A model generated the notes under the pieces. That model was not told the origin of the DNA, made no database searches, and saw only the letters and a program-made list of their open reading frames with translations. From contig NZ_CP073347.1 in assembly GCF_024397915.1 (NCBI RefSeq), forward strand, positions 2,820,058-2,860,057: a DNA stretch of 40,000 bases, read 5' to 3'. This stretch comes from Marinobacterium rhizophilum (GTDB lineage: Bacteria > Pseudomonadota > Gammaproteobacteria > Pseudomonadales > Balneatricaceae). This document shows, piece by piece, positions 31-37,831 of this stretch (positions are counted from its first letter, which is position 1; each line of letters begins with the position of its first letter). Both the position numbers and the translations under genes were made by a program.

Positions 31-142
31 GCACGTCCACCGCTCATGCACATCCCTGTATCCGCGGTATTAATGCATCCATGCACGTCCACCGCTCCTG
101 CACATCCCTGTGCTCGCGGTATTAGTGCATCCATGCACGTCA
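31..142. repeat. 52-bp tandem repeat: 2 full units (31-82, 83-134) plus a 7-nt partial unit, running into the stop codon of the ThDP-enzyme gene
   Basis: GCACGTCCACCGCTC recurs at 31, 83 and 135, giving a period of 52. The two full units differ at about 5 positions. The third start reads GCACG-TCA, and that TCA (140-142) is the TGA stop of the minus-strand gene. The array may continue left of the window. Confidence 0.85.
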
Positions 143-1783
143 ATACAGCTTCTTCTGTGGGGGGCCGGCGAAGTTGAGCGGGCCGACCCGGTGCATGTCG
201 ACTTCGATCACCGCCGGGCCCTCGATGGCGATGGCGTCCCGGATGGCGGAATCAAACTCTTCGACCGAGCCCACCTGCCAGCTCGGCATGCCCATTGCGG
301 TGCCGACATCCCGGTAGTTGGGGGTATGCAGTTCGTTGTAGTACTGCCGACCGTCGAAGTAGTTGTTCTGGATGCCGCGCATTACACCGTAGCCGCTGTC
401 GTTCATGACGATCAGCACCAGGTCGGTGTTTTCCTGCACCATGGTGGCCATTTCGCCGATGCCGAGCATCAGGCCGCCGTCACCCACCAGACCCACGACC
501 TTGCGGGTCGGGTTGGCAATGGCGCTGCCGATGGCGTGGGCCAGGCCCAGGCCGATGGCACCGGCCAGTGAGTGGATATTGCGGTTGGCCCCGTTAACCT
601 CGAATAGGCGGCTGCCCCAGGTGCTGCCGGACATGGTGATGTCCCGCACCAGGATGCCATCCTCGGGCAGAGCGTCACGCAGTGCGTTGCAGATACCGGC
701 ATAGTTGCCCACCTGGTCGCTCAGGGCCGCCACCGACTGCTCAACCACAGTCGCAATGGCGCGGTCATAGTCCGCATCGACCTTTTCAGCCTCGCCCAGG
801 GCATCGGCCAGGTACGCCAGCGCGACTTTGGCATCGGCGCAGATAAAACGGTCAGCACGGTAGTTGCGGTTCTGCGCCGCCGCGAAGGCATCAATCTGTA
901 CCAGCGGCTTGCCGAACTCCAGCGAGTAGGTCAGGGTCTCGTTGCTGCGCAGGCGCGAGCCCGCCACGATCACCAGGTCGCTGTCCTTGCACAGGTCCTT
1001 GAAGGACGCGCTGTTGTGAAAGGCCCGCAGGCTGCGCGGATGACTGTCCGGCAGGATGCCGCGACCGTGAGTGCTGGACACCACCGGCACCCCCTTGTCG
1101 GCCAGCGCCTTTACTTGCGCTTCACAGCCGGCGGCACCGCCACCGATCCACAGCAGCGGGCGTCTGGCGCTTTTCAGCTGCGCCGCCAGGCTTTCCAGCT
1201 CGGCGGATGCCGGCACCGGCAGCACGGCGGGCTCGATGGGGCCCAGATCCAGCGGCAGTTCGATGGTTGCGGCCTGTACATCGATGGGGATCTCGATGCT
1301 GACCGGGCCCATGGGGACGCTGCGGGCGACACGGATGGCTTCACGCACAATGCCGGCGGCACTTTCCGGATGGCTGATGCGGTACGCCGCCTTGCTGCTG
1401 GCCTTGAGGAAGGTCAGTTGGTCCCTGGCTTCATGGATAAAGCTGGCATCGCGGTCCAGGTATTCGCGCTCCACCTGGCCGGTAATATGCAGCACCGGGC
1501 TCGCGGCATTGCCAGCCTCAATCAGGGAGCCAATGGCATTGCCGGCGCCGGCGCCGGTGCTGGTCAGGGCCACGCCCAGACCTGCAAAGCGGGCATGGGC
1601 ATCGGCCATGGTGACGCAGCCGGCTTCGCCGCGGGCCGGCACAAAGGCGATCTCGCCGCGACGGCCAATGGCATCGGCCACCGGCAGGTTATGGATGGAA
1701 ATCACGCCGTAGACGTTGGCAACGCCATGGGCTTCTAGAATGCGGGCGACGACTTCGCCGACGGTAACTTGTTCAGACATCAT
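140..1783 (-). CDS. Thiamine-diphosphate-dependent enzyme (acetolactate synthase large subunit / benzoylformate decarboxylase family)
   Basis: The ORF is 549 aa. The N-terminal Pyr domain reads GVANVYGVISIHNLPVADA. The C-terminal PP domain has the ThDP motif GDGGLMLGIGEMATMVQENTDLVLIVMNDSGYG. The track ORF starts at GTG 1789; ATG codons at 1783 and 1780 follow an AGGTGA Shine-Dalgarno, so the exact start is uncertain by 1-3 codons. Confidence 0.88.
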   Translation of the reverse strand: MMSEQVTVGEVVARILEAHGVANVYGVISIHNLPVADAIGRRGEIAFVPARGEAGCVTMADAHARFAGLGVALTSTGAGAGNAIGSLIEAGNAASPVLHITGQVEREYLDRDASFIHEARDQLTFLKASSKAAYRISHPESAAGIVREAIRVARSVPMGPVSIEIPIDVQAATIELPLDLGPIEPAVLPVPASAELESLAAQLKSARRPLLWIGGGAAGCEAQVKALADKGVPVVSSTHGRGILPDSHPRSLRAFHNSASFKDLCKDSDLVIVAGSRLRSNETLTYSLEFGKPLVQIDAFAAAQNRNYRADRFICADAKVALAYLADALGEAEKVDADYDRAIATVVEQSVAALSDQVGNYAGICNALRDALPEDGILVRDITMSGSTWGSRLFEVNGANRNIHSLAGAIGLGLAHAIGSAIANPTRKVVGLVGDGGLMLGIGEMATMVQENTDLVLIVMNDSGYGVMRGIQNNYFDGRQYYNELHTPNYRDVGTAMGMPSWQVGSVEEFDSAIRDAIAIEGPAVIEVDMHRVGPLNFAGPPQKKLY

Positions 1784-1876
1784 ATTCACCTGTTCTTGTT
1801 CGTAGGAGCTGCGCCTCGCAGCGAATGCTCCCGTGCCAAATTTGTTCGCCGCGGGGGCGCGGCTCCTACGGAAATA

Positions 1877-3343
1877 TTATTCGGCCCAGGGGTTCGGCGT
1901 GTCGCTCAGCCCCAGATAGACGCTCTTCTGTTGCATGTACTCGAGCACGCCCAGGCGTCCCTTTTCGCGACCCAGACCGCTCTCCTTGAAGCCGCCAAAG
2001 GGCGCCGATATGGAGAATTTCTTGTAGGTGTTGATCCAGATGGTGCCGGCCTCCAGCTGGCGACCGATGCGCCAGGCACGGCGGAAATCCTCGCTCCAGA
2101 TGCCGGCCGCAAGACCGAAGACGCTGTTGTTGGCGCGGGCCAGCAGGTCAGCCTCGTCATCGAACTTCAGCACCACCAGCACCGGCCCGAATATCTCTTG
2201 CTGACAGACGCTGGCCCCGTTATCCAGCCCGGCAATGATGGTTGGCGGGTAGTAGCTGCCCTGGGCCATGTGCCCCTCGGCCAGGCGGGTACCGCCACAG
2301 AGGATTTCGCCGCCCTCGGCGCGGGCCTGGTCGACAAAACCGGCCACCGACGCCAGGTGCGCCTCGCTGATCAGCGGTCCCATATGGGTGCCGGGCTCCT
2401 CCGGATGACCGACCCGCAAGTTGGCGGTCAATTCCAGCAGGCGGCCCATGAAGCGGTCATACACCTTGGCATGCACAAACAGGCGCGAGCCGGCGATGCA
2501 GGCCTGGCCCGAGGAGCTGAAGATGCCGTAAACGACACCCCTGGCCGCCAGCTCGATATCCGCATCCTCGAACACGATGGTGGGTGACTTGCCACCCAGT
2601 TCCAGCGACGTCGGAATCAGCTTTTCAGCGGCGACATGGGCCAGGTGGCGCCCGGTGCCGGTGCCGCCGGTAAAGGAGATCTTGCGCACCAGCGGGTGGG
2701 CCGCCAGGGCCTCACCCACCACCGAACCCCGGCCCGGCAGTACACTGAGCAACCCCTTCGGCAGGCCGGCTTCCTCGAACAGTTCGGCCAGAGCCAGCGC
2801 CGCCAGGGGCGTGGCATCGGCGGGCTTGACGATCACCGCATTGCCTGCCGCCAGTGCCGGGGCGATTTTCTGCATTTCGCTGGCAATGGGCGAATTCCAG
2901 GGCGTGATAGCGGCAATAACGCCCAGCGGCTCATGCACGCTCAGGGTCATGAACTCGCTCGAGCGCTGCGCCGGCAGCTGCTCATCCAGGGTTTCGCAGG
3001 CGGCGGCAAAATAGCGCGCAGTAGCCGCGGCACTCATGACCAGGCCGCGGGTTTCGGCCAGTGGCTTGCCGTTGTCCCGGGTCTGCATGGAGGCCAGTTC
3101 ATCGACACGCTGGCTGATCAGGTCCGCCACGCGGTACAGCACCGCCGCCCGCTCGTGGGGCATGCGGTTGCGCCACTGCGGTTCGCGCCAGGCACGTTCC
3201 GCCGCCTGTACGGCCTCTTCCACATCCTCTGCACTGGCCGTGGCGATTTCGGCATTCAGGCTGCCATCGGCCGGAAAATAGGTCGCGCGCACCGGGCCGC
3301 CCCCCTGCTTCCACTGGCCGGCAATAAAGATAGGTTTGGTCAT
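1877..3343 (-). CDS. NAD(P)+-dependent aldehyde dehydrogenase
   Basis: ALDH family motifs are present: ELGGKSP and the catalytic-Cys region FSSSGQACIAGSR. I placed the start at internal ATG 3343 (MTKPIFIAGQW) because GAGGAGA lies 6 nt upstream. The 20 extra N-terminal codons of the track ORF have no RBS. Confidence 0.92.
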   Translation of the reverse strand: MTKPIFIAGQWKQGGGPVRATYFPADGSLNAEIATASAEDVEEAVQAAERAWREPQWRNRMPHERAAVLYRVADLISQRVDELASMQTRDNGKPLAETRGLVMSAAATARYFAAACETLDEQLPAQRSSEFMTLSVHEPLGVIAAITPWNSPIASEMQKIAPALAAGNAVIVKPADATPLAALALAELFEEAGLPKGLLSVLPGRGSVVGEALAAHPLVRKISFTGGTGTGRHLAHVAAEKLIPTSLELGGKSPTIVFEDADIELAARGVVYGIFSSSGQACIAGSRLFVHAKVYDRFMGRLLELTANLRVGHPEEPGTHMGPLISEAHLASVAGFVDQARAEGGEILCGGTRLAEGHMAQGSYYPPTIIAGLDNGASVCQQEIFGPVLVVLKFDDEADLLARANNSVFGLAAGIWSEDFRRAWRIGRQLEAGTIWINTYKKFSISAPFGGFKESGLGREKGRLGVLEYMQQKSVYLGLSDTPNPWAE

Positions 3344-3369
3344 GATTATTCTCCTCGAAGCCCAAGGCT

Positions 3370-4161
3370 TCAGATCAACAGGGACGCGGTGCTGTGCCGG
3401 CACGCCCGGACAACGCTCAGCGCCGCCAGGGTCGACGTCTTGGGATTGCTCGGCAGCGGCAGGCCGCTCAGCTCGAGCTTCATTTCACCGAAACGGCCGC
3501 GGGCGCAGATCAGGTGCTGGTTGCGCTCGATTCCGGGGTCCGCCATCAGCTCGACCCGGGTATCGTCCATGCCGACACCGGCCAGGGCGATGGTCGCCGC
3601 CACATTGGCATTGGCCGGGAACCGCAATGCCGCCTCCCGGGCCGTGCCGCGATAAAACACCGTGGCTTCGGTAATGCTGTCCAGGTCGATCAGGGTTTCG
3701 GCCGGGCTGCCTTTCCAGCTTTTCGGGCTCTTGCGCGCGCAGTACACCACCTCATCCAGCCCCCCTTCTTTCGCCGCCGCCAGGCCATCGATACCGGCGA
3801 TGGCACCGGCCAGCGCATGGATGCGGGCCCGGCCCGCCACCGCCGCGCTCTGCAGCCGGTCCAGCAGCGCATTGTCGGCAAAGGCACCGACCGAAATCAC
3901 GCCCAGGTCCCAGCCCCGTGCCAGCACTGCCTCGCCGTGCTGACGAATTGCGCCCTGGCCGGCACATTCAACCACCAGGTCCGGCGTGCCGTTGCAGGCT
4001 TCGATATCACTGATCACCTGGACACCGGCGGCCACCTGGCCGCGCGCCGCCGCAACGCTAGTTACCGGTACCAGCAGCCACTGCAGGCTGAGGTCTTCGG
4101 GCAGCAGGGCGAGCACTTCGCGGGCCATGGCGCCAAAACCGATCATCATTAACTGTTTCAT
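3370..4161 (-). CDS. Aspartate dehydrogenase domain protein (NadX-like)
   Basis: The protein is about 263 aa. It has an N-terminal Rossmann segment MMIGFGAMAREV, and the C-terminal part (ANANVAATIALAGVG...NPKTSTLAALSV) is typical of L-aspartate dehydrogenase. The start is ATG 4161, preceded by GAGGAAA. Confidence 0.8.
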   Translation of the reverse strand: MKQLMMIGFGAMAREVLALLPEDLSLQWLLVPVTSVAAARGQVAAGVQVISDIEACNGTPDLVVECAGQGAIRQHGEAVLARGWDLGVISVGAFADNALLDRLQSAAVAGRARIHALAGAIAGIDGLAAAKEGGLDEVVYCARKSPKSWKGSPAETLIDLDSITEATVFYRGTAREAALRFPANANVAATIALAGVGMDDTRVELMADPGIERNQHLICARGRFGEMKLELSGLPLPSNPKTSTLAALSVVRACRHSTASLLI

Positions 4162-6436: not shown

Positions 6437-7693
6437 TCAGTATTTTTTCAGTAGCGGCAGTAGCACCAAGGAACCGATCACGGCAATGATCACCAGGAAC
6501 ATGATGCCATTGTCGAAGTTGCCGCTGCTGGTGACGATATAACCCATGATCACGGGTGCGGCGGCACCGGCAAAGTTGCCGAAACCGTTGAACACGCCAC
6601 CGGCCGTGGCGCTGACATTATCCGGGCTGACCCGGCTCAGCAGGGCGAACACCGATGCCACCCCAAAACCCCAGCTCATGGCACTGACCGACATGGCCAG
6701 GATCGCCAGCAGCGGATCATTGATCTGCGGTACGGCGGCCATCGCCAGGCCCGCCAGCAGCAGCCCGCCGAACACCTGGGCGGCGCGCTTGCCGGTCTTG
6801 TCCGACAGAAAGGCTCCAGCGACTTCCCCAATCAGCATGGCCACAAAAGGCAGTGACGACAGGGTGCCAAACTCCTTCAGGTTGATGCCCTTGGCTTCGA
6901 TCAGGTAGCTCGGCAGCCAGCCATTGAGGCCCCAGAGGTAGGTCAGCAGTGCGGTGTTGAACAGGCACACCGCCCAGAAGGCCGGAGCGCTGAACAGCAG
7001 GCGGCAGTTGGCCAGATGCTCCGACATACCCAGCCGGCGCTTGCCGGCATTGAGCTGGGCGCCGGTCTTGAGCTGCACATTGCGCAGACCCGAGATCACC
7101 ACCATGACCACCACCAGGGTAAAGGCCGCCATGACAAAGAAGGTACTCTGCCAGCCATGATTGGCCAGTACGTAGGCGGTCACCGGAAAGCCGATCGCGG
7201 CACCCACCGGTGTTCCGAGCAGGAACATGGTGCTGGCACGGGCAATCTGATGGGGCTGGTAGCATTGCTTGACGATGGTATAGGCCAGGGCGAACAGCGG
7301 GCCTTCGGCAATGCCCAGCAGCACGCGCAGGAACAGCATCTCGGCGTAGCTGTCGGCAAAACCCATGGCGGCCATCAGCAGGCCCCACATCAGGATGCAG
7401 GCCACCAGGCATTTCTTGGGGTTGATCAGATCTCCCAGAAAACTCAGGAAGATCGACGAAAAGCCGTAGGCCAGCAGGAAGCTGGTCATCAGCCAGCCCA
7501 GCAGCGTCTTGTCGCTGCCAATCCCCATGGCATTCTGGAAGGCGGTATCGGAAAACAGCACGGCAATACTGATCTTGTCAAAAAAGGCCAGTACCACACA
7601 GAGCATCAGAATGGCGGAAATGGACCACAGACGGACGCTGGAGTTCGGTACTGCCAGGGGCTCCGCCGCCATGTCACCTTTAAGCGTTTGCAT
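6437..7693 (-). CDS. MFS transporter
   Basis: The protein is 418 aa and highly hydrophobic, with about 12 predicted TM segments in a two-halves architecture separated by a central loop (LKTGAQLNAGKRRLGMSEH). Confidence 0.85.
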   Translation of the reverse strand: MQTLKGDMAAEPLAVPNSSVRLWSISAILMLCVVLAFFDKISIAVLFSDTAFQNAMGIGSDKTLLGWLMTSFLLAYGFSSIFLSFLGDLINPKKCLVACILMWGLLMAAMGFADSYAEMLFLRVLLGIAEGPLFALAYTIVKQCYQPHQIARASTMFLLGTPVGAAIGFPVTAYVLANHGWQSTFFVMAAFTLVVVMVVISGLRNVQLKTGAQLNAGKRRLGMSEHLANCRLLFSAPAFWAVCLFNTALLTYLWGLNGWLPSYLIEAKGINLKEFGTLSSLPFVAMLIGEVAGAFLSDKTGKRAAQVFGGLLLAGLAMAAVPQINDPLLAILAMSVSAMSWGFGVASVFALLSRVSPDNVSATAGGVFNGFGNFAGAAAPVIMGYIVTSSGNFDNGIMFLVIIAVIGSLVLLPLLKKY

Positions 7694-12438: not shown

Positions 12439-12889
12439 CCCCGCAGAATTCACAGGGGTATGTCATGAAAAGCCTCTGAAAAACACCGAGAATGACTGCA
12501 AAAAATGAATAAAAACAAAAATTAAGCAATTTTTACATGACCCTTAAACCTGGAATCAAAGGGACTCCGAGCCCCCGGAACTCAAAAAAAACATAAAATG
12601 GCAGCGGAAAAATGCACCGGAACTTGGATAAAGCGATAGTTCAAATATGATCAAGTAGCGCGCACGGCAATGCTCGCCTCAACCGCCGGGCGATATGCAG
12701 ACAGGAGAAAAGCCAGCCAGATGGCGACTGTACGCAGGGGCGTTACAGCAAAAACGACAGGAACAGTAACCAGGGAAGTACAACAGGCCAGGCAGGGGTG
12801 CATACAGGCCGCCGGGATCGACAGGATGGGCGACTATCCCGGGCAATTCCGGGCAATCCCGGCGATTTCAGCAAGCGCTATGAAAGCGA

Positions 12890-13080
12890 TCAGAACTGGG
12901 ACGAATGCAGCCCCAGGGTGCGGGACAGGTCTTTGGAGGCCTTGACCACCTCCTCTCGGATGCGGCCGTCGAACGCGTCACGGGACAGGCTTCCCAGCGG
13001 GCAACTTACGCAGCTCGTGTCCACAAAGGCGCAGCGACAATACGCCCAGCTGTTTCAGGAGCTCCAGGCTCAGCACCTAA
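12890..13080 (-). pseudogene. Silent copy A of the iclR 3' end
   Basis: It keeps the TGA stop and the frame for about 39 codons. It differs from the live end at about 4 positions in the first 120 nt; beyond that it is decayed with indels. Confidence 0.85.
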
Positions 13081-13168
13081 GCCGGGATTGGCAGGATGGG
13101 CGACTATCCCGGGCAATCCGGGCAATTCCGGGCAATCCGGACTATTTCAGCAAGCGTTATGAAAGCGA

Positions 13169-13359
13169 TCAGAACTGGGACGAATGCAGCCCCAGGGTGC
13201 GGGACAGCTCTTTGGAGGCCTTGACCACTTCCTCACGGATGCGGCCGTCGAACTCGTCACGGGACAGGCTTCCCAGCGGGCAACTTACGCAGCTCGTGTC
13301 CACAAAGGCGCAGCGACAATACGCCCAGCTGTTTCAGGAGCTCCAGGCTCAGCACCTAA
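13169..13359 (-). pseudogene. Silent copy B of the iclR 3' end
   Basis: As for copy A. There are 4 differences from the live end in 120 nt: one D-to-E change and three synonymous changes. Confidence 0.85.
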
Positions 13360-13447
13360 GCCGGGATTGGCAGGATGGGCGACTATCCCGGGCAATCCGG
13401 GCAATTCCGGGCAATCCGGACTATTTCAGCAAGCGTTATGAAAGCGA

Positions 13448-13638
13448 TCAGAACTGGGACGAATGCAGCCCCAGGGTGCGGGACAGCTCTTTGGAGGCCT
13501 TGACCACTTCCTCACGGATGCGGCCGTCGAACTCGTCACGGGAGAGGCTTCCCGGCGGGCAACTTACGCAGCTCGTGTCCACAAAGGCGCAGCGACAATA
13601 CGCCCAGCTGTTTCAGGAGCTCCAGGCTCAGCACCTAA
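13448..13638 (-). pseudogene. Silent copy C of the iclR 3' end
   Basis: As for copy A. It carries a private L-to-P change (CTG to CCG). Confidence 0.85.
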
Positions 13639-13706
13639 GCCGGGATTGACAGGATGGGCGACCATCCCGGGCAACCCCGGGCAATCCGGACTATTTCAGA
13701 AAGCGA

Positions 13707-14495
13707 TCAGAACTGGGACGAATGCAGCCCCAGGGTGCGGGACAGGTCTTTGGAGGCCTTGACCACCTCCTCACGGATGCGGCCGTCGAACTCGTCACGG
13801 GAGAGGCTTCCCAGCGGGCAACTCACGGAAACCGCAGCCACAATACGCCGGTCATCCACGCTCAGTACCGGTGCCACACAGGCTGCCATGCCGGGATTGA
13901 AGTGCCCCCAGGCAATCGCGGCATCCTTGCCACGGTAACTGCGCACCCGCTCGAGCAAGGCCTCGGGCGTGGCCGGAGTGGTTTCGGTAAAACGCTCGAA
14001 GCCGTAATCCTGGTACAGCTCCAGGATGGCATCATCCGACAGCGTGGACAGCATGAGCTGACCGGTCACGGTAGCATGGGCCGGCCAGCGTGTGCCCACC
14101 GATACGGTACTGGTGAAGGGGCCGGTGGCCTGGAAGCATTCGACAATTACCGTGTTGTGGCCATCGCGAATCAGCAGCTGACTGGCCAGGGTTGTCTGGT
14201 TGCGCAGGTGCTCCAGTATCGGCCGCGAAGGCTCCAGCAACTCCAGGCTGGAGAGGTACTGGAAACCCAGATCCAGGATGCGGGAACTCAGGGTATAGCG
14301 GTTGCTGTCACCGACACGGCGCAGAAAGCCGCAGTTTTCCAGGGTGTACACCAGGCGGAAGGTACTGGAACGGTTCACCCCGATCGCCTCGGCCAGTTCG
14401 GATATCGATTGTTCCCGCTTGTGCTTGCTGAACTGCTGCAACACAGCCAGCCCCCGCACCAGGCCCGGGACTATATAACGGTCATCTGTTTCCAT
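13707..14495 (-). CDS. IclR-family transcriptional regulator
   Basis: It has an N-terminal winged HTH (VPGLVRGLAVLQQF...ISELAEAIGVNRSSTFRLVYTLENCGFL) and a C-terminal IclR effector domain. The start is taken at ATG 14495 (METDDRY); the 41 upstream codons of the track ORF are not IclR-like. Confidence 0.9.
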   Translation of the reverse strand: METDDRYIVPGLVRGLAVLQQFSKHKREQSISELAEAIGVNRSSTFRLVYTLENCGFLRRVGDSNRYTLSSRILDLGFQYLSSLELLEPSRPILEHLRNQTTLASQLLIRDGHNTVIVECFQATGPFTSTVSVGTRWPAHATVTGQLMLSTLSDDAILELYQDYGFERFTETTPATPEALLERVRSYRGKDAAIAWGHFNPGMAACVAPVLSVDDRRIVAAVSVSCPLGSLSRDEFDGRIREEVVKASKDLSRTLGLHSSQF

Positions 14496-19456: not shown

Positions 19457-19490
19457 CGCCCGGCAACCCCTGGTAGCCGGGCGTTTTCGT
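19457..19490 (+). terminator. Rho-independent terminator of the 18890-19444 gene
   Basis: There is a perfect 8-bp stem, CGCCCGGC (19457-19464) / GCCGGGCG (19476-19483), with an 11-nt loop, followed by TTTTCGT. Confidence 0.7.
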
Positions 19491-19800
19491 CCCCGCCCTT
19501 ACCGAAAAACAGCAAGCGGCTGAAGAAGGCACAAGACAAGGGCCGGCTTGCGCCGCCATCAGCCCCATTAGTGCCATCAGCACTACGAAAGATCACTGCA
19601 ATGCTGCCCCTGCCCCTGCCCGCCAGTATCCTGGTAGCCCTGATTTTTAGCCCCCGCTTTTACCGAAAACAGCAAGCGATTGAGGAAGGTACATGACAAG
19701 GGTCGGCTTGCGCCGCCATCAGCCCCATTACTTCCGTACGCACTACGAAAGACCGCTGCAGTACTGCCGCTGCCCGCCAGTATCCTGGTAGCCCTGATTT
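19486..19800. repeat. Two degenerate tandem copies (161 and 154 bp) of the 3' end plus flank of the cox subunit-IV-like gene
   Basis: TTAGCCCCCGtCTTTTcCGAAAA (live, 19801) aligns with TTAGCCCCCGCTTTTACCGAAAA (19647) and TTCGTCCCCGCCCTTACCGAAAA (19486). The shared motifs CGCCATCAGCCCCAT and CCCGCCAGTATCCTGGTAGCCCTGATTT recur with the same spacing. Confidence 0.8.
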
Positions 19801-20139
19801 TTAGCCCCCGTCTTTTCCGAAAAATAATAGGCGACTGAGGAAGACGTAATCAGCTTCAACCGCCATCAGCCCCATCAGTACCAGCAGGCACAGGGGGGGA
19901 ACCAGGATGGCATACACAATGGCCAGCCTTTCCCACGCCATGTGCATGAAAATCGACACGATCAGGCCGGCCTTGAGCAGCATGAAAATAAGAATCAGGG
20001 CCCAGCGCAACGGGCCCTCGAAATGAAAATAGTCCACCAGGTAAGACAGGGTACTGAGGATAAACAGCAACCCCCATATTTTCAGATAGAGGCTCACGGG
20101 ATGCTGCTGCCCCTGTTTAATCTCGTGCATAGATTCCAT
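19801..20139 (-). CDS. Small haem-copper oxidase subunit (bacterial cytochrome oxidase subunit IV-like, 3 TM)
   Basis: The protein is 112 aa from ATG 20139 (MESMHEIKQG), 11 nt after the subunit III stop. It has three hydrophobic helices and lies last in the oxidase cluster. Confidence 0.7.
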   Translation of the reverse strand: MESMHEIKQGQQHPVSLYLKIWGLLFILSTLSYLVDYFHFEGPLRWALILIFMLLKAGLIVSIFMHMAWERLAIVYAILVPPLCLLVLMGLMAVEADYVFLSRLLFFGKDGG

Positions 20140-20149
20140 TGCCGGCACC

Positions 20150-20860
20150 TCACCAGAGATAAAAGAACGCGAAAATAAAGACCCAGACCAGGTCCACGAA
20201 ATGCCAGTAGAGCCCGGCGATCTCGACCACCTGGTAGTCCCCGCTGCTTTCGTAGTGCCCACGCATTACCTTGTAGGCCACCACGCTGAGGTAAATTACA
20301 CCAATGGAAACATGCAGCCCGTGAAAGCCCGTGATCATGAAAAAACTGGCACCAAACTGCGCCGCGCCCTCGGGGTTTCCCCAGGGTCTTACACCCTCTT
20401 CAATCAGCTTGCTCCACTCGAATGCCTGCATGCCGACAAAGGCCGCGCCCAGCAGCGCCGTCGCCAGTATCAGCAGCCCTGTTCTGAGCCGCGCCCGGCG
20501 GTAGGCGAAATTGACGGCCATGGCCATGGTGCCGCTGCTGCTGATCAGTACAAAGGTCATGATCGCGATCAGAATCAGCGGTATCGAGTGCCCCCCAAGG
20601 GTCAAGGCAAAGACTTCGCTGGTATTGGGCCAGGGTGCGGTGGTGGTCATGCGCACGGCCATGTAGCCGATCAGAAAGCAGGAAAACACAAAGGTATCGC
20701 TGAGCAGGAAAATCCACATCATGGCCTTGCCCCAGGACACCTGCCTGAAGGCCTCCTTGTCCGACGACCAGTCGCGGTACAGACCTTCCCAGCCACCGGG
20801 TGCGGCGGCTTCTGTCGGGGGCCGCTCGGCTAGCGGCGCATCTCTTGAAGACCGGGCCAT
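20150..20860 (-). CDS. Haem-copper oxidase subunit III family protein
   Basis: The protein is 236 aa with multiple TM segments and a typical subunit III C-terminus (GLYWHFVDLVWVFIFAFFYLW). The RBS GAGGTGA is present. Confidence 0.88.
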   Translation of the reverse strand: MARSSRDAPLAERPPTEAAAPGGWEGLYRDWSSDKEAFRQVSWGKAMMWIFLLSDTFVFSCFLIGYMAVRMTTTAPWPNTSEVFALTLGGHSIPLILIAIMTFVLISSSGTMAMAVNFAYRRARLRTGLLILATALLGAAFVGMQAFEWSKLIEEGVRPWGNPEGAAQFGASFFMITGFHGLHVSIGVIYLSVVAYKVMRGHYESSGDYQVVEIAGLYWHFVDLVWVFIFAFFYLW

Positions 20861-25254: not shown

Positions 25255-25404
25255 GACTTATACACAGCGGGAAAAGACGGCCCGGAACAGCAGGGCCAAT
25301 GCCAAGGATCAGCCCTGCGCAAACCGCGCCCACGGCAGAACGTACATCCTGTATAGACCGCTCCTGCGCATCCATGCGCCCGCGGCATACCGTTGTGCCC
25401 TTGC

Positions 25405-25500
25405 TCACACCGTCTCGTTGACCGCCTTTGTCAGTTCCATGATGGCCTTCTTGCCATCACTGAAGCGCATCAGGCAGTTGTCCAGGGCAAAGAACGGCCA
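25405..25500 (-). pseudogene. Silent copy 1 of the pntB 3' end (most diverged)
   Basis: It has a TGA stop and the frame is kept. It carries four private non-synonymous changes (T-to-K, G-to-S, R-to-L, L-to-F). Confidence 0.85.
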
Positions 25501-25572
25501 ATTGTGGATAGCGCAGGCCCGAACCGCACGGCCAGGGACGACCCACCAGGCGGCAGACCGTCGTTCCCTTGC

Positions 25573-25668
25573 TCACACCGTTTCGTTGACCGCCGTTGTC
25601 AGTTCCATGATGGCCTTCTTGCCATCGCCAAACAGCATCAGGCAGCTGTCCCTGGCAAAGAGCGTCCT
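25573..25668 (-). pseudogene. Silent copy 2 of the pntB 3' end
   Basis: It has a TGA stop. Its differences from the live end are mostly synonymous (GTG, GAA, TTT, CTG), plus one N-to-S change. Confidence 0.85.
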
Positions 25669-25740
25669 GTTGTGGATAGCGCAGGCCCGAACTGCACGGC
25701 CAGGGACGGCCCACCAGGCGGCAGACCGTCGTTCCCTTGC

Positions 25741-25836
25741 TCACACCGTTTCGTTGACCGCCGTTGTCAGTTCCATGATGGCCTTCTTGCCATCACCGAA
25801 GAGCATCAGGCAGTTGTCCCGGGCAAAGAGCGTCCT
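25741..25836 (-). pseudogene. Silent copy 3 of the pntB 3' end
   Basis: It has a TGA stop and encodes LFARDNCLMLFGDGKKAIMELTTAVNETV, identical to the live C-terminus. It is embedded in the ATG-initiated 62-codon track ORF 25741..25929. Confidence 0.85.
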
Positions 25837-25962
25837 GTTGTGGATAGCGCAGGCCCGAACCGCACGGCCAGGGACGGCCCACCAGGCGGCAGCCCGTACA
25901 TCCTGTATAGACCGCTCCTGCGCATCCATGCGCCCGCGGCATACCGTACATCCTGTACATAC

Positions 25963-26058
25963 CTAAACCGTTTCGTTGACCGCCGTTGTCAGCTCCATGA
26001 TGGCCTTCTTGCCATCACCGAAGAGCATCAGGCAGCTGTCCCTGGCGAAGAGCGGCCA
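25963..26058 (-). pseudogene. Silent copy 4 of the pntB 3' end (TAG type)
   Basis: It shares the TAG stop and the GTT and GAG codon states with the live gene. Like the live gene, it is directly preceded by the ~50-nt X element. Confidence 0.85.
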
Positions 26059-26130
26059 ATTGTGGATAGCGCAGGCCCGAACTGCACGGCCAGGGACGGC
26101 CCACCAGGCGGCAGACCGTCGTTCCCTTGC

Positions 26131-26226
26131 TCACACCGTTTCGTTGACCGCCGTTGTCAGTTCCATGATGGCCTTCTTGCCATCGCCGAAGCGCATCAGG
26201 CAGTTGTCCCGGGCAAAGAGCGCCCT
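26131..26226 (-). pseudogene. Silent copy 5 of the pntB 3' end
   Basis: It has a TGA stop, three synonymous differences and one L-to-R change. Confidence 0.85.
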
Positions 26227-26294
26227 GTTGTGGATAGCGCAGGCCCGAACTGCGCATCCATGCGCCCGCGGCATACCGTACATCCTGTACATAC

Positions 26295-27689
26295 CTAAAC
26301 CGTTTCGTTGACCGCCGTTGTCAGCTCCATGATGGCCTTCTTGCCATCGCCGAAGAGCATCAGGCAGTTGTCCCTGGCAAAGAGCGGGTTGGGCAGGCCC
26401 GCAAAGCCCGGGCTCAGGCTGCGCTTGACCACCACCACGGTACGCGCCTTGTCGACGTTCAGGATCGGCATGCCGTAGATCGGGCTGCCCTTGTCTTCCC
26501 GCGCCATGGGATTGGTGACATCGTTGGCGCCGATCACAATGGCCACGTCCGTCTGTTCGAACAGCGCATTGACCTCCTCCATCGGCTGCATCTTGTCGTA
26601 GGCGACCTCGGCTTCGGCCAGCAGCACGTTCATGTGGCCGGGCATGCGCCCCGCCACCGGATGCAGGCCATAGATCACCTCGATGCCGCGCCGCTCCAGC
26701 GAGTCGGCCAGGTCGCGCACCGCGTGCTGCGCCTGGGCCATGGCCAGGCCAAAGCCCGGCACGATCACCACGCGGCGGGCGCTCTCGAGCAGCATGCCCA
26801 CTTCCTCCGGCGAGGACGACTTCACCTTGCCGGCATAGACCTCATCGGCATCCATCACGGCCCCACCGGCCTCGGCAGCCGAACCAAAGAGTACCGCGGT
26901 GAGGGAACGGTTCATGGCCACGCACATGATGCGGGTGAGGATAATGCCCGACGCCCCCACCAGGGCACCGGACACCACCAGCACGCTGTTACCCATGATG
27001 AACCCCGCCGCCGCCGCCGCCAGCCCCGAGTAGGAATTCAGCAGGGCTATCACCACCGGCATGTCAGCACCACCAATGGGCATGACCAGGGTTACCCCCA
27101 GCACCAGGGCCAGCACTGTGAGCAATACCAGGGTGCTGCTGTCACCGCTGCCGCTGATAAGTGAGCCCGCCAGTGCCAGCACGGCGGCAAAGAGCGCCAG
27201 GTTCAGGCCGCCCATGCCCCGGAAACCCAGCGGCCGACCCGGCAGCAGTTCCTGCAGCTTGGCAAAGGCCACCGCACTGCCGCTGAGGGTAACCGCGCCA
27301 ATCAGCAGCGTCAGGCAGATGGCCACCAGTGCCACCAGCCCCTGGGGGCCTGCGGTCGCGGTCTGGCCCAGAAAACTGGCCGCCGCCACGCAGAGCGATG
27401 CACCGCCACCAAAGCCGTTGAGCAGCGCCACCATCTGCGGCATCGCCGTCATCTGGATGCGGATCGCCAGCACCGTGCCGACCAGCGACCCCAGCACCAC
27501 GCCACCGAGTATCCATTCATAGGACAGGATCGACCGATCCAGCAGGGTCACCACCACCGCCACCAGCATGCCGATAGCCGCCATCTGGTTGCCACGCACC
27601 GCGGTACGCGGCCGGGTCAGGCCCTTGATGCCACCGACGAACAGCATGGCCGCCAGCAGGTAAAAACCATCAACCAGCAACAGATTCAT
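26295..27689 (-). CDS. pntB: NAD(P) transhydrogenase subunit beta
   Basis: The protein is 464 aa, with a membrane domain followed by a dIII NADP(H) domain (VIIVPGFGLAMAQAQH...GANDVTNP...VVVKRS). It lies in pntAA-pntAB-pntB order. Confidence 0.95.
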   Translation of the reverse strand: MNLLLVDGFYLLAAMLFVGGIKGLTRPRTAVRGNQMAAIGMLVAVVVTLLDRSILSYEWILGGVVLGSLVGTVLAIRIQMTAMPQMVALLNGFGGGASLCVAAASFLGQTATAGPQGLVALVAICLTLLIGAVTLSGSAVAFAKLQELLPGRPLGFRGMGGLNLALFAAVLALAGSLISGSGDSSTLVLLTVLALVLGVTLVMPIGGADMPVVIALLNSYSGLAAAAAGFIMGNSVLVVSGALVGASGIILTRIMCVAMNRSLTAVLFGSAAEAGGAVMDADEVYAGKVKSSSPEEVGMLLESARRVVIVPGFGLAMAQAQHAVRDLADSLERRGIEVIYGLHPVAGRMPGHMNVLLAEAEVAYDKMQPMEEVNALFEQTDVAIVIGANDVTNPMAREDKGSPIYGMPILNVDKARTVVVVKRSLSPGFAGLPNPLFARDNCLMLFGDGKKAIMELTTAVNETV

Positions 27690-29448: not shown

Positions 29449-29503
29449 TTTTACCTTTCACCTTTCACCTTTACCCTTGCCCCTTGCCCCTTGCCCCTTT
29501 TAC
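29449..29503. repeat. 7-nt-periodic microsatellite; the minus strand reads (AAGGGGC)x3-AAGGGTA-(AAGGTGA)x2
   Basis: The plus strand reads TTTTACCTTTCACCTTTCACCTTTACCCTTGCCCCTTGCCCCTTGCCCCTTTTACC. C-runs at 29474-76, 29480-83, 29487-90 and 29494-97 give a G3+N3 x4 motif on the minus strand. Confidence 0.85.
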
Positions 29504-29538
29504 CAATAACTAGTTACTAGTCACCAATCACTTCTTTC

Positions 29539-37582: not shown

Positions 37583-37736
37583 GATCACAGCCTCCGTTAT
37601 TGTTTTTGGTGGGGCCTTGTAGAGTTCAGGTCAAAGGTCGCCGTGCCTGCACAACAACTTTTTACCAAACGGTAAATTTAACTTACACCATATTTTGCCA
37701 AGTGGTCAAATATTTTTACAGGCATCGAAAGAAGCA

Positions 37737-37831
37737 GGGGGAAGGGGGAAGGGGGAAGGGGGAAGGTTCAAGGGACAAGGGACAAGGGACAAGGGACAAG
37801 GAGTGTAAGGAGCAAGGGGCACGGGGCAAGG
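37737..37831. repeat. 7-nt-periodic G-run microsatellite: (GGGGGAA)x4, (GGGACAA)x4, and degenerate GGGGCAx units
   Basis: G5 runs lie at 37737-41, 37744-48, 37751-55 and 37758-62. G3 runs lie at 37772-74, 37779-81, 37786-88 and 37793-95. The sequence GGAGCAAGGGGCACGGGGCAAGG follows. Confidence 0.9.

Follow-up and report, generated by a model that had tools for sequence, protein, structure and literature searches.

The subject of this report is a tandem array of silent gene ends lying directly behind pntB, the gene for the beta subunit of NAD(P) transhydrogenase, in Marinobacterium rhizophilum. The window, by which we mean the whole stretch of DNA analysed, covers 40,000 nucleotides (nt) of contig NZ_CP073347.1 (positions 2,820,058 to 2,860,057 of the forward strand). 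The live pntB gene occupies positions 26295..27689 on the minus strand of the window, as an open reading frame (ORF) matching the Pfam family PNTB (E=4.4e-175), and its product is 100% identical to the M. rhizophilum protein UTW10179.1. The gene ends in a TAG stop codon at 26295-26297. Downstream of it, at lower coordinates, lie five further copies of its last 92 nt, which extend from a CGCTCT motif through the stop. The silent stops fall at 25405, 25573 and 25741 (TGA), 25963 (TAG) and 26131 (TGA), with periods, counted from the distal end, of 168, 168, 222, 168 and 164, and each silent tail specifies the final 29 residues of PntB with 0-5 substitutions. Tandem Repeats Finder (TRF) reported a period of 168 with 92% matches and a score of 892, plus a second row, and self-BLAST returned E=0, a repeat signal far beyond chance. 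An initial annotation of this DNA, made from the letters alone, had proposed five silent, stop-bearing tails with these stops and periods, and the sequence, TRF and self-BLAST all bear this out; the conserved part next to each stop, estimated there at about 95 nt, is the 92 nt from CGCTCT through the stop in each copy.

Counted from the distal end, the order of the array is [X][c1][c2][c3][X][c4][c5][X'][live], where c1 to c5 are the silent tails and X is a hairpin element. This order, too, had been read correctly from the sequence, with X at 25337-25388 and 25893-25962 and in shortened form at 26250-26294. All parts described here lie on the minus strand. The repeated part of the live gene, T0 (26295..26386; 92 nt, CGCTCT motif through GTT-TAG), has X' adjoining its stop (26250..26294); set beside the c4 unit, X' proves to be X without a stretch of 58 nt that has been lost from between GCGCAG and GTGCGG. 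A 27-nt remnant of a flank segment termed S (26223..26249) then precedes tail c5 (26131..26222), which is of the TGA type, has the codon states CGG and GAA and carries one L>R change. Next comes a complete S (26055..26130), 76 nt that, by alignment with the flanks of two relatives, are the ancestral downstream flank of pntB, ending at the junction with the next tail. That tail, c4 (25963..26054), is of the TAG type and is the nearest relative of the live tail. Behind it lies X (25893..25962), 70 nt or about 1.4 units of a 52-nt hairpin repeat, with a predicted RNA fold of -28.6 kcal/mol (z=-2.2), followed by the remaining 60 nt of S (25833..25892).

Tails c3 (25741..25832) and c2 (25573..25664), both of the TGA type, are each followed by S (25665..25740 and 25497..25572, respectively). 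The former makes up the 3' part of a 62-codon ORF (25741..25929), and the latter retains CTG-TTT, the state of the live genes in all four relatives compared. The most distal tail, c1 (25405..25496), is also the most decayed, with four of its five private changes nonsynonymous. Behind it, the segment 25337..25404 consists of 16 nt of the start of S and then one 52-nt X unit (25337-25388) inserted after ACGGT. The array closes with a diverged rest of S (25255..25336; alignment score against S 26.5 vs 17.7±2.9, with 5 of 500 shuffles as good) that ends in a CGCTGT motif of the flank, beyond which the DNA is unique and conserved in the relative L082. The gain of X and the loss of 58 nt explain the aberrant periods of 222 and 164, respectively, and the six tails are in register.

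The repeat unit and its counterpart in relatives

The standard unit comprises T, the 92-nt gene tail, and S, of 76 nt. A single pntB tail is present in each of the four relatives, namely M. profundum (L081), a Marinobacterium metagenome-assembled genome (MAG; L004), L082, which is the closest with a 96% identical protein, and L083. In two of these relatives S aligns to the DNA that comes immediately behind the pntB stop, namely in M. profundum (57.5 vs 21.7±3.2 for shuffles; 0 of 300 shuffles as good) and in the Marinobacterium MAG (42 vs 20.7±3.0). As it aligns behind the stop in relatives that have one tail, S is the ancestral downstream flank of pntB, neither a foreign element nor diverged gene sequence.

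In this respect the initial annotation has to be amended. It had taken the copies upstream of GGCAAAGAGCG to be sharply diverged gene sequence; this DNA is native downstream flank, and the edge seen there simply marks where S stops and T begins. The patch GCAGGCCCG, read as a shared remnant of the gene, is at chance level, since 38 of 500 shuffles score as well. A gene-derived spacer was rejected for pntB on this test, which is positive at a second locus of the window, iclR (see below). In the flanks of M. profundum, L004, L082 and L083, no second, decayed tail was significant in local and semi-global alignments compared with shuffles, and tail matches that had been noted there by eye beyond the first 10-20 nt were dropped on the same grounds.

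The unique DNA distal to the array is homologous to L082 (score 194). At 3240-3360 this JGI contig is without S and has two copies of a unit of about 70 nt behind pntB, with a hairpin CCTGAAAACG...CGTTTTCAGG, and in L083 a (CATGACTGG)n run occupies this position. Within the clade, the spacer between pntB and the cox genes has the look of a hot spot for small repeats. A search of JGI metagenome contigs matched neither the junction GCGCTATCCACAAYWGGVCGYTCTTYGCC nor the tail pattern, in a collection that evidently lacks even the JGI contigs found by the protein route, and exact look-ups of PntB, PntA and CoxB yielded no second M. rhizophilum assembly.

The junctions of the array

The pntB region of M. 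profundum, in which the tail is single, contains the hexamer CGCTGT twice, at 7304 in the tail (CCCGCTGTTTGCC) and at 7472 in the flank (GGCGCTGTCTCC). The spacing of this pair is 168 nt, the unit period in the window, and its two members are the points fused at each junction of the array. The distal end of the array carries the flank version of the motif (...TTTTCC CGCTGT GTATAAG), after which the unique DNA shared with L082 begins. A short direct repeat is thus present at both breakpoints in a relative that represents the pre-duplication state, and the units stand head to tail, consist of native local sequence and are single in relatives. A layout of this form, r-A-r-A-...-r, is what slipped misalignment or template switching characteristically leaves when it takes place between short direct repeats. 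Slipped misalignment has reportedly been worked on by Lovett and colleagues, as cited in Slack et al. 2006.

A hairpin element at the stop codon

X belongs to a family of 52-nt imperfect palindromes with the core CCGCG..GC.CA.GGATG.GCAGGAGCGGT. In the window this core occurs only in the pntB array and in a 2.1-copy tandem at 31-141, the two being about 80% identical in the core, and it was absent from 89 related loci. The tandem starts directly after the TGA of a gene for a thiamine-pyrophosphate (TPP) enzyme (140..1789, minus strand); the start of the window may cut this X-like array. Both versions of X fold into the same nested hairpin (z-scores of -2.2 and -3.1), and a compensatory change distinguishes their stems (GCGCA/UGCGC vs GCACA/UGUGC).

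The element occurs in three states in the pntB array. A single unit lies within S behind c1, where it follows ACGGT. In place of the native 'G TGA GCAAGGGAACGACGGT', c4 and the live tail are each followed by about 1.4 X units that begin T-TAG-GTATG, so that X supplies the stop codon and the last codon still specifies valine; the join falls on ACGGT, a sequence that both X and the end of the gene contain. The X of the live end and the S that follows it have furthermore lost the 58 nt between GCGCAG and GTGCGG, which accounts for the difference between the periods of 222 and 164. All three secondary changes, the insertion of X, its joining to the stop and the 58-nt loss, thus carry microhomology as well.

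X resembles the hairpin repeats of the REP (repetitive extragenic palindromic) and MIRU (mycobacterial interspersed repetitive unit) kind in being about 52 nt long and imperfectly palindromic, in its capacity to form tandems (2.1 copies) and in beginning directly at a stop codon at both of its sites in the window. MIRUs have been described to insert at gene boundaries in a way that keeps reading frames coupled (PMC12548453). However, they are described at start codons in mycobacteria and have no sequence relation to X, which differs from REP/MIRU-like repeats also in occupying only two sites in the window, in having no Rfam family and in that no associated transposase was seen.

Variation and exchange among the six tails

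The nearest relatives among the tails are two units apart (live and c4, c5 and c3), and tail site 17 alternates between A and C through all six, which together make the array three dimers. In agreement with this, a reference block of 294 nt has 93-95% identity to the blocks that lie 168 and 390 nt away from it. The idea that a two-unit block had itself been duplicated, put forward in the initial annotation, is therefore supported by the tail pairs, site 17 and the 294-nt blocks. The states that it had proposed to be common to c4 and the live end, GTT-TAG and GAG, were found in both, as was AGG.

All four combinations of the variants at tail sites 36 and 43 are present, which indicates exchange among copies. 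Within the 29 shared codons, 6 of 14 variant states are nonsynonymous compared with 77% expected (P=0.005), and the excess of synonymous variation is stronger when changes private to c1 are set aside (2 of 9 nonsynonymous, P=0.0007). Of the states in the silent tails, CGG, CTG, TTT and GGT equal those of the relatives' live genes; the synonymous excess is explained by the retention of older live states in silent copies. Earlier versions of the live tail survive in the silent units, and what is now the live end is a unit that X has rearranged and that was duplicated. Two lineage-specific changes, CTC at site 10 and ACG for GCG, are common to all six tails, so that the array arose, or was homogenised, within the M. 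rhizophilum lineage. Participation of the live end in exchange, as suggested from the outset, thus gains indirect support from the mosaic sites and the excess of synonymous variants.

Divergence among silent units is similar in T and S, at 2-5 differences per 76-92 nt, and the tail is therefore not specially conserved in the silent copies. At the far edge of the array, c1 decays freely.

Open reading frames and expression signals

The 62-codon ORF on copy c3 (25741..25929, minus strand), to which the initial annotation had drawn attention, exists as an ORF and is entered in the public record as the hypothetical protein UTW10177.1; a 47-amino-acid (aa) ORF on copy c5 is entered as the hypothetical protein UTW10178.1. 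The ORFs 25741-25929 and 26131-26292 both begin in X and end in a silent PntB tail, UTW10178.1 being a shorter form of the second, and an AGGA is located 8 nt 5' of the ATG of this 47-aa form. No homologue of the 62-aa ORF was found outside its own cluster among about 15 billion proteins. UTW10177.1 and UTW10178.1 are almost certainly annotation artefacts, that is, tail fragments and not genes.

Long antisense ORFs also cross the arrays of the window, one of 301 aa at pntB (25393-26298, plus strand) and one of 283 aa at iclR (12798-13649, plus strand). Because the unit lengths of 168 and 279 nt are multiples of three, such ORFs run through both arrays. Neither had a credible Pfam match or was present in the protein collection, and they are probably meaningless in GC-rich DNA. 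For the array as a whole, Pfam gave no family for the 62-aa, 53-aa or 301-aa antisense ORFs.

A scan for promoters and terminators found no promoter-like or terminator-like site inside the pntB array, the one terminator-like hairpin in the vicinity lying beyond it at 25140-25125. Rfam had nothing at gathering level in the array and no family for X. Among the ORFs of the window scanned with Pfam, a set that leaves aside small or unscanned ORFs, there was no integrase, transposase or reverse transcriptase, and the other scanned genes are all metabolic or respiratory. The silent tails are without detectable function of their own, and of a programmed silent-cassette function there was no sign. Replication-transcription conflict was considered as a cause and rejected: GC skew suggests that the minus strand is the leading strand, in which case the arrayed genes are co-directional with replication.

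Other gene-tail arrays and their background frequency

Two more gene-tail arrays lie in the same 40 kb, at iclR and at the gene for cytochrome oxidase (cox) subunit IV, and the three are the only large direct repeats of the window apart from an internal domain repeat in coxB. The iclR array (12811-13843, minus strand) has a period of 279, with silent TGA stops at 12890, 13169 and 13448 and the live stop at 13707. Its silent units match the gene almost exactly over their last 137 nt, and their spacer derives from the 110-130 nt or so before these, with which it is still colinear but from which it has decayed heavily (semi-global score 53 vs 19.4±5.3, z=6.3). We tentatively attribute this two-tier conservation to gene conversion that stops at indels. 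A microsatellite of 9-10 nt (ATTGCCCGG) lies within the iclR array. The third array (19469-19887, minus strand) belongs to the subunit IV gene, which matches COX4_pro (19801..20262); its period is about 160, and it holds two older silent tails of about 80% identity, one of them ending in a TAA at 19647. It is situated between the COX4_pro gene and a convergent gene. The three arrays have no junction sequence in common, and the copies within the iclR and COX4_pro arrays are as diverse as those of pntB.

Comparable structures were found elsewhere. In an Oceanospirillaceae MAG (L089), a decayed partial iclR tail lies at 4079-4160, about 290-370 nt after the stop at 3789 (71.5 vs 24.6±3.1). This copy is closer to its own gene than to the gene of the window, so that iclR tail duplication is either recurrent or kept similar by conversion. 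In an unrelated MAG of the Planctomycetota (L064, 1173-1409), a 99-nt segment that spans the pntB stop, with 30 nt of tail and 66 nt of flank, is repeated 138 nt downstream at 100% identity, which represents either an independent tail-spanning duplication or an artefact of MAG assembly. A background of 1.3 Mb of loci contained some five arrays whose period reached 100 nt or more, most of them in two organisms, with comparable arrays in the loci L031, L061 and L064. At most 6 of 1001 background ORFs had a downstream tail copy, a figure that is an upper bound only, since the ORFs were picked crudely and some arrays are mislabelled as a result. Duplications that span a gene tail thus occur sporadically and in general, and the window is enriched for them. 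A literature search found no specific description of gene-tail arrays or of Marinobacterium repeats.

The window furthermore contains a 7-nt repeat (AGGGGCA, 13.4 copies) at 37736-37831 and a 21-nt repeat (2.7 copies) at 29450-29504, and a 25-nt inverted match links the two.

Origin of the array

The array is a minisatellite that most likely stems from ordinary errors of replication and recombination and was not programmed. On the evidence of its sequence, it probably began as a microhomology-based tandem duplication across the stop codon. Unequal exchange and conversion would have amplified and homogenised it, and it would have been tolerated because the gene stayed intact and the extra tails are silent. 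As a first step, suggested by the anatomy of the junctions, slippage or template switching in an ancestor of M. rhizophilum would have taken place between two CGCT(G/C)T repeats, situated 89 nt upstream and 76 nt downstream of the pntB stop, respectively, and would have duplicated 168 bp. Since the duplicated segment spans the stop codon, the gene would have remained intact, with the extra tail and the native flank silent downstream of it. Microhomology rearrangement of this kind has been characterised in E. coli, where it is dependent on distance, independent of homologous recombination and confined to one replication fork (PMC1428787).

In a second step, to which the variant patterns point, unequal homologous exchange between the 168-bp repeats would have added units; two unit variants would have arisen, and their dimers would have been amplified to give three. 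The third step is shown by comparison of the sequences. The 52-nt hairpin X inserted into the flank segment after ACGGT, and a microhomology deletion (ACGGT/GCGGT) later joined X to the last codon and created the new TAG, leaving the protein unchanged. The X-joined unit was duplicated with its neighbour and is now the live end, where a further microhomology deletion of 58 nt turned X into X'. The silent tails would persist because changes at the 3' end of a gene that preserve its frame are nearly neutral, and they also trade sequence with the live tail in a form of concerted evolution.

Several points weigh against this account. A single public assembly underlies the copy number. With three in 40 kb, gene-tail arrays are well above the measured background, and this enrichment hints at something lineage-specific that slippage alone leaves unexplained. 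The copies differ by 2-17 substitutions per 92-98 nt, a considerable age for a direct repeat that is not under selection in a bacterium proficient in recombination, and the synonymous excess could reflect selection on the copies themselves. Finally, a pair of 6-nt motifs would be expected by chance with a probability of about 0.04-0.1 (for a given hexamer within 150 nt); the weight of the CGCTGT pair comes from its position and exact spacing.

Some of these points are the substance of another explanation, in which a lineage-specific process or selection makes or maintains the arrays. The silent copies would then be either spare 3' ends for repair and exchange, which might be useful when hairpins such as X land on a stop codon, or a structured 3' untranslated region (UTR) or spacer between co-directional operons. 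Such a role would accommodate the three arrays in one 40-kb window against a low background, copies that are old yet undecayed and vary mostly at synonymous positions, and the two-tier conservation at iclR, where the last 137 nt are near-identical while the colinear 110-130 nt before them have decayed (z=6.3). It would also fit the live end, which as an X-rearranged duplicated unit attests that exchange with the live position has occurred. However, maintenance is difficult to reconcile with T and S diverging alike among silent units (2-5 per 76-92 nt), with the free decay of the distal c1 and with the expression signals that were sought in the array and not found. The synonymous excess is explained by the retention of older live states, and no junction sequence is common to the three arrays, X being present in one only. 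We consider an explanation of this type unlikely. Its far-reaching form, according to which M. rhizophilum carries tail arrays genome-wide as an exchanging reservoir that keeps essential gene ends intact against X-like insertions and deletions, is likewise unlikely; recombinational maintenance of a 'spare end' would, if true, be previously undescribed.

Expansion of a single tail by the assembler is very unlikely. The sequence is found in only one assembly, as such an artefact would require, but the copies differ at many positions (2-17 substitutions) in a structured, alternating pattern, with two stop types and three states of X, and the two other arrays of the window are equally diverse internally. 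Assemblers, moreover, collapse repeats instead of inventing diverged ones.

Stacked gene 3' ends may also be the residue of tandem integrations at an attachment site, and with the repeat element X at hand, a small mobile or integrative element could be imagined that captured a 3' fragment of pntB and inserted repeatedly, restoring the gene end each time. This explanation is already contradicted, and we regard it as scarcely credible. The DNA between the tails is native flank that is single in relatives (spacers of 76-130 nt of flank plus X), the unit is only 168 nt long, no integrase or transposase was seen among the scanned genes of the window, X is missing from three of the five inter-tail spacers, and junction and tail were unmatched in JGI metagenome contigs. 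The case that the initial annotation had named as fatal to its own view, an unrelated element that captured a pntB fragment, is contradicted in the same way, as the inter-tail DNA is the ancestral flank of pntB itself. The other such case, a single copy, is opposed by the 2-17 substitutions that separate the tails.

Programmed variation, in which silent cassettes donate variant C-termini as in pilE/pilS or form the template/variable pair of a diversity-generating retroelement (DGR), would share with the locus the silent 3' copies downstream of an expressed gene and the exchange among copies, but can be dismissed as extremely improbable: the cassettes encode the same 29 residues with only two shared nonsynonymous variants, substitutions are of all types (A/C, A/G, T/G, C/G, C/T, G/A, T/C) without adenine bias, neither a reverse transcriptase nor a recombinase was seen among the scanned ORFs of the window, and PntB, as a housekeeping membrane enzyme, has no reason to vary at its C-terminus.

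Relation to known systems and significance

In its behaviour the pntB locus resembles a bacterial minisatellite whose higher-order repeat recalls that of satellites, and its birth matches laboratory microhomology duplications. It is an ordinary kind of repeat, of note mainly for the like arrays at two genes close by. With bacterial minisatellites and variable-number tandem repeats (VNTR) it shares head-to-tail units in the range of about 50-300 bp, copies that differ by point changes, a position at the edge of a coding region and the growth by slippage and unequal exchange expected of such repeats. It differs from them in that the genuine coding tail, stop codon included, fills more than half of the pntB unit, in the higher-order arrangement of the units as dimers, and in that the end of the live gene is itself one of these units. 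The microhomology duplications of E. coli (Slack et al. 2006, PMC1428787) likewise have a novel junction on a short direct repeat, which for pntB is the CGCTGT that pre-exists in the single-copy relative, and their later steps likewise need homologous exchange between repeats. In contrast to the pntB array, a natural fossil of 168-bp units with no evident selection, the E. coli events were observed in the laboratory, at kilobase scale and under selection (PMC1428787).

The resemblance to attachment-site duplications or silent cassettes is superficial. Duplications of 3' ends at attachment sites, whether in tRNA, tmRNA or protein-gene targets, also leave the gene intact with displaced, stackable 3' copies downstream, whereas the pntB array has no element between its copies, no integrase and a spacer of native flank. 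Neisseria pilE/pilS and DGR repeats similarly involve promoterless partial copies near an expressed gene and exchange between copies, but the pntB copies carry no alternative coding information, show no adenine-directed mutation and have no dedicated enzyme.

The two hypothetical proteins UTW10177.1 and UTW10178.1 need correction in the public record as tail fragments, and short-read assemblies of the region are likely to break or to collapse. Beyond these practical consequences, the pntB array is a clean natural example of the birth and growth of a tandem duplication, with the pre-duplication state surviving in a sister species, and it records dimer amplification, invasion by a hairpin repeat, replacement of a stop codon and exchange with the live gene. 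The array points to a possibly repeat-prone genome and, if arrays of this kind are common genome-wide, M. rhizophilum would be a useful organism in which to study the dynamics of minisatellites and the concerted evolution of bacterial gene ends.

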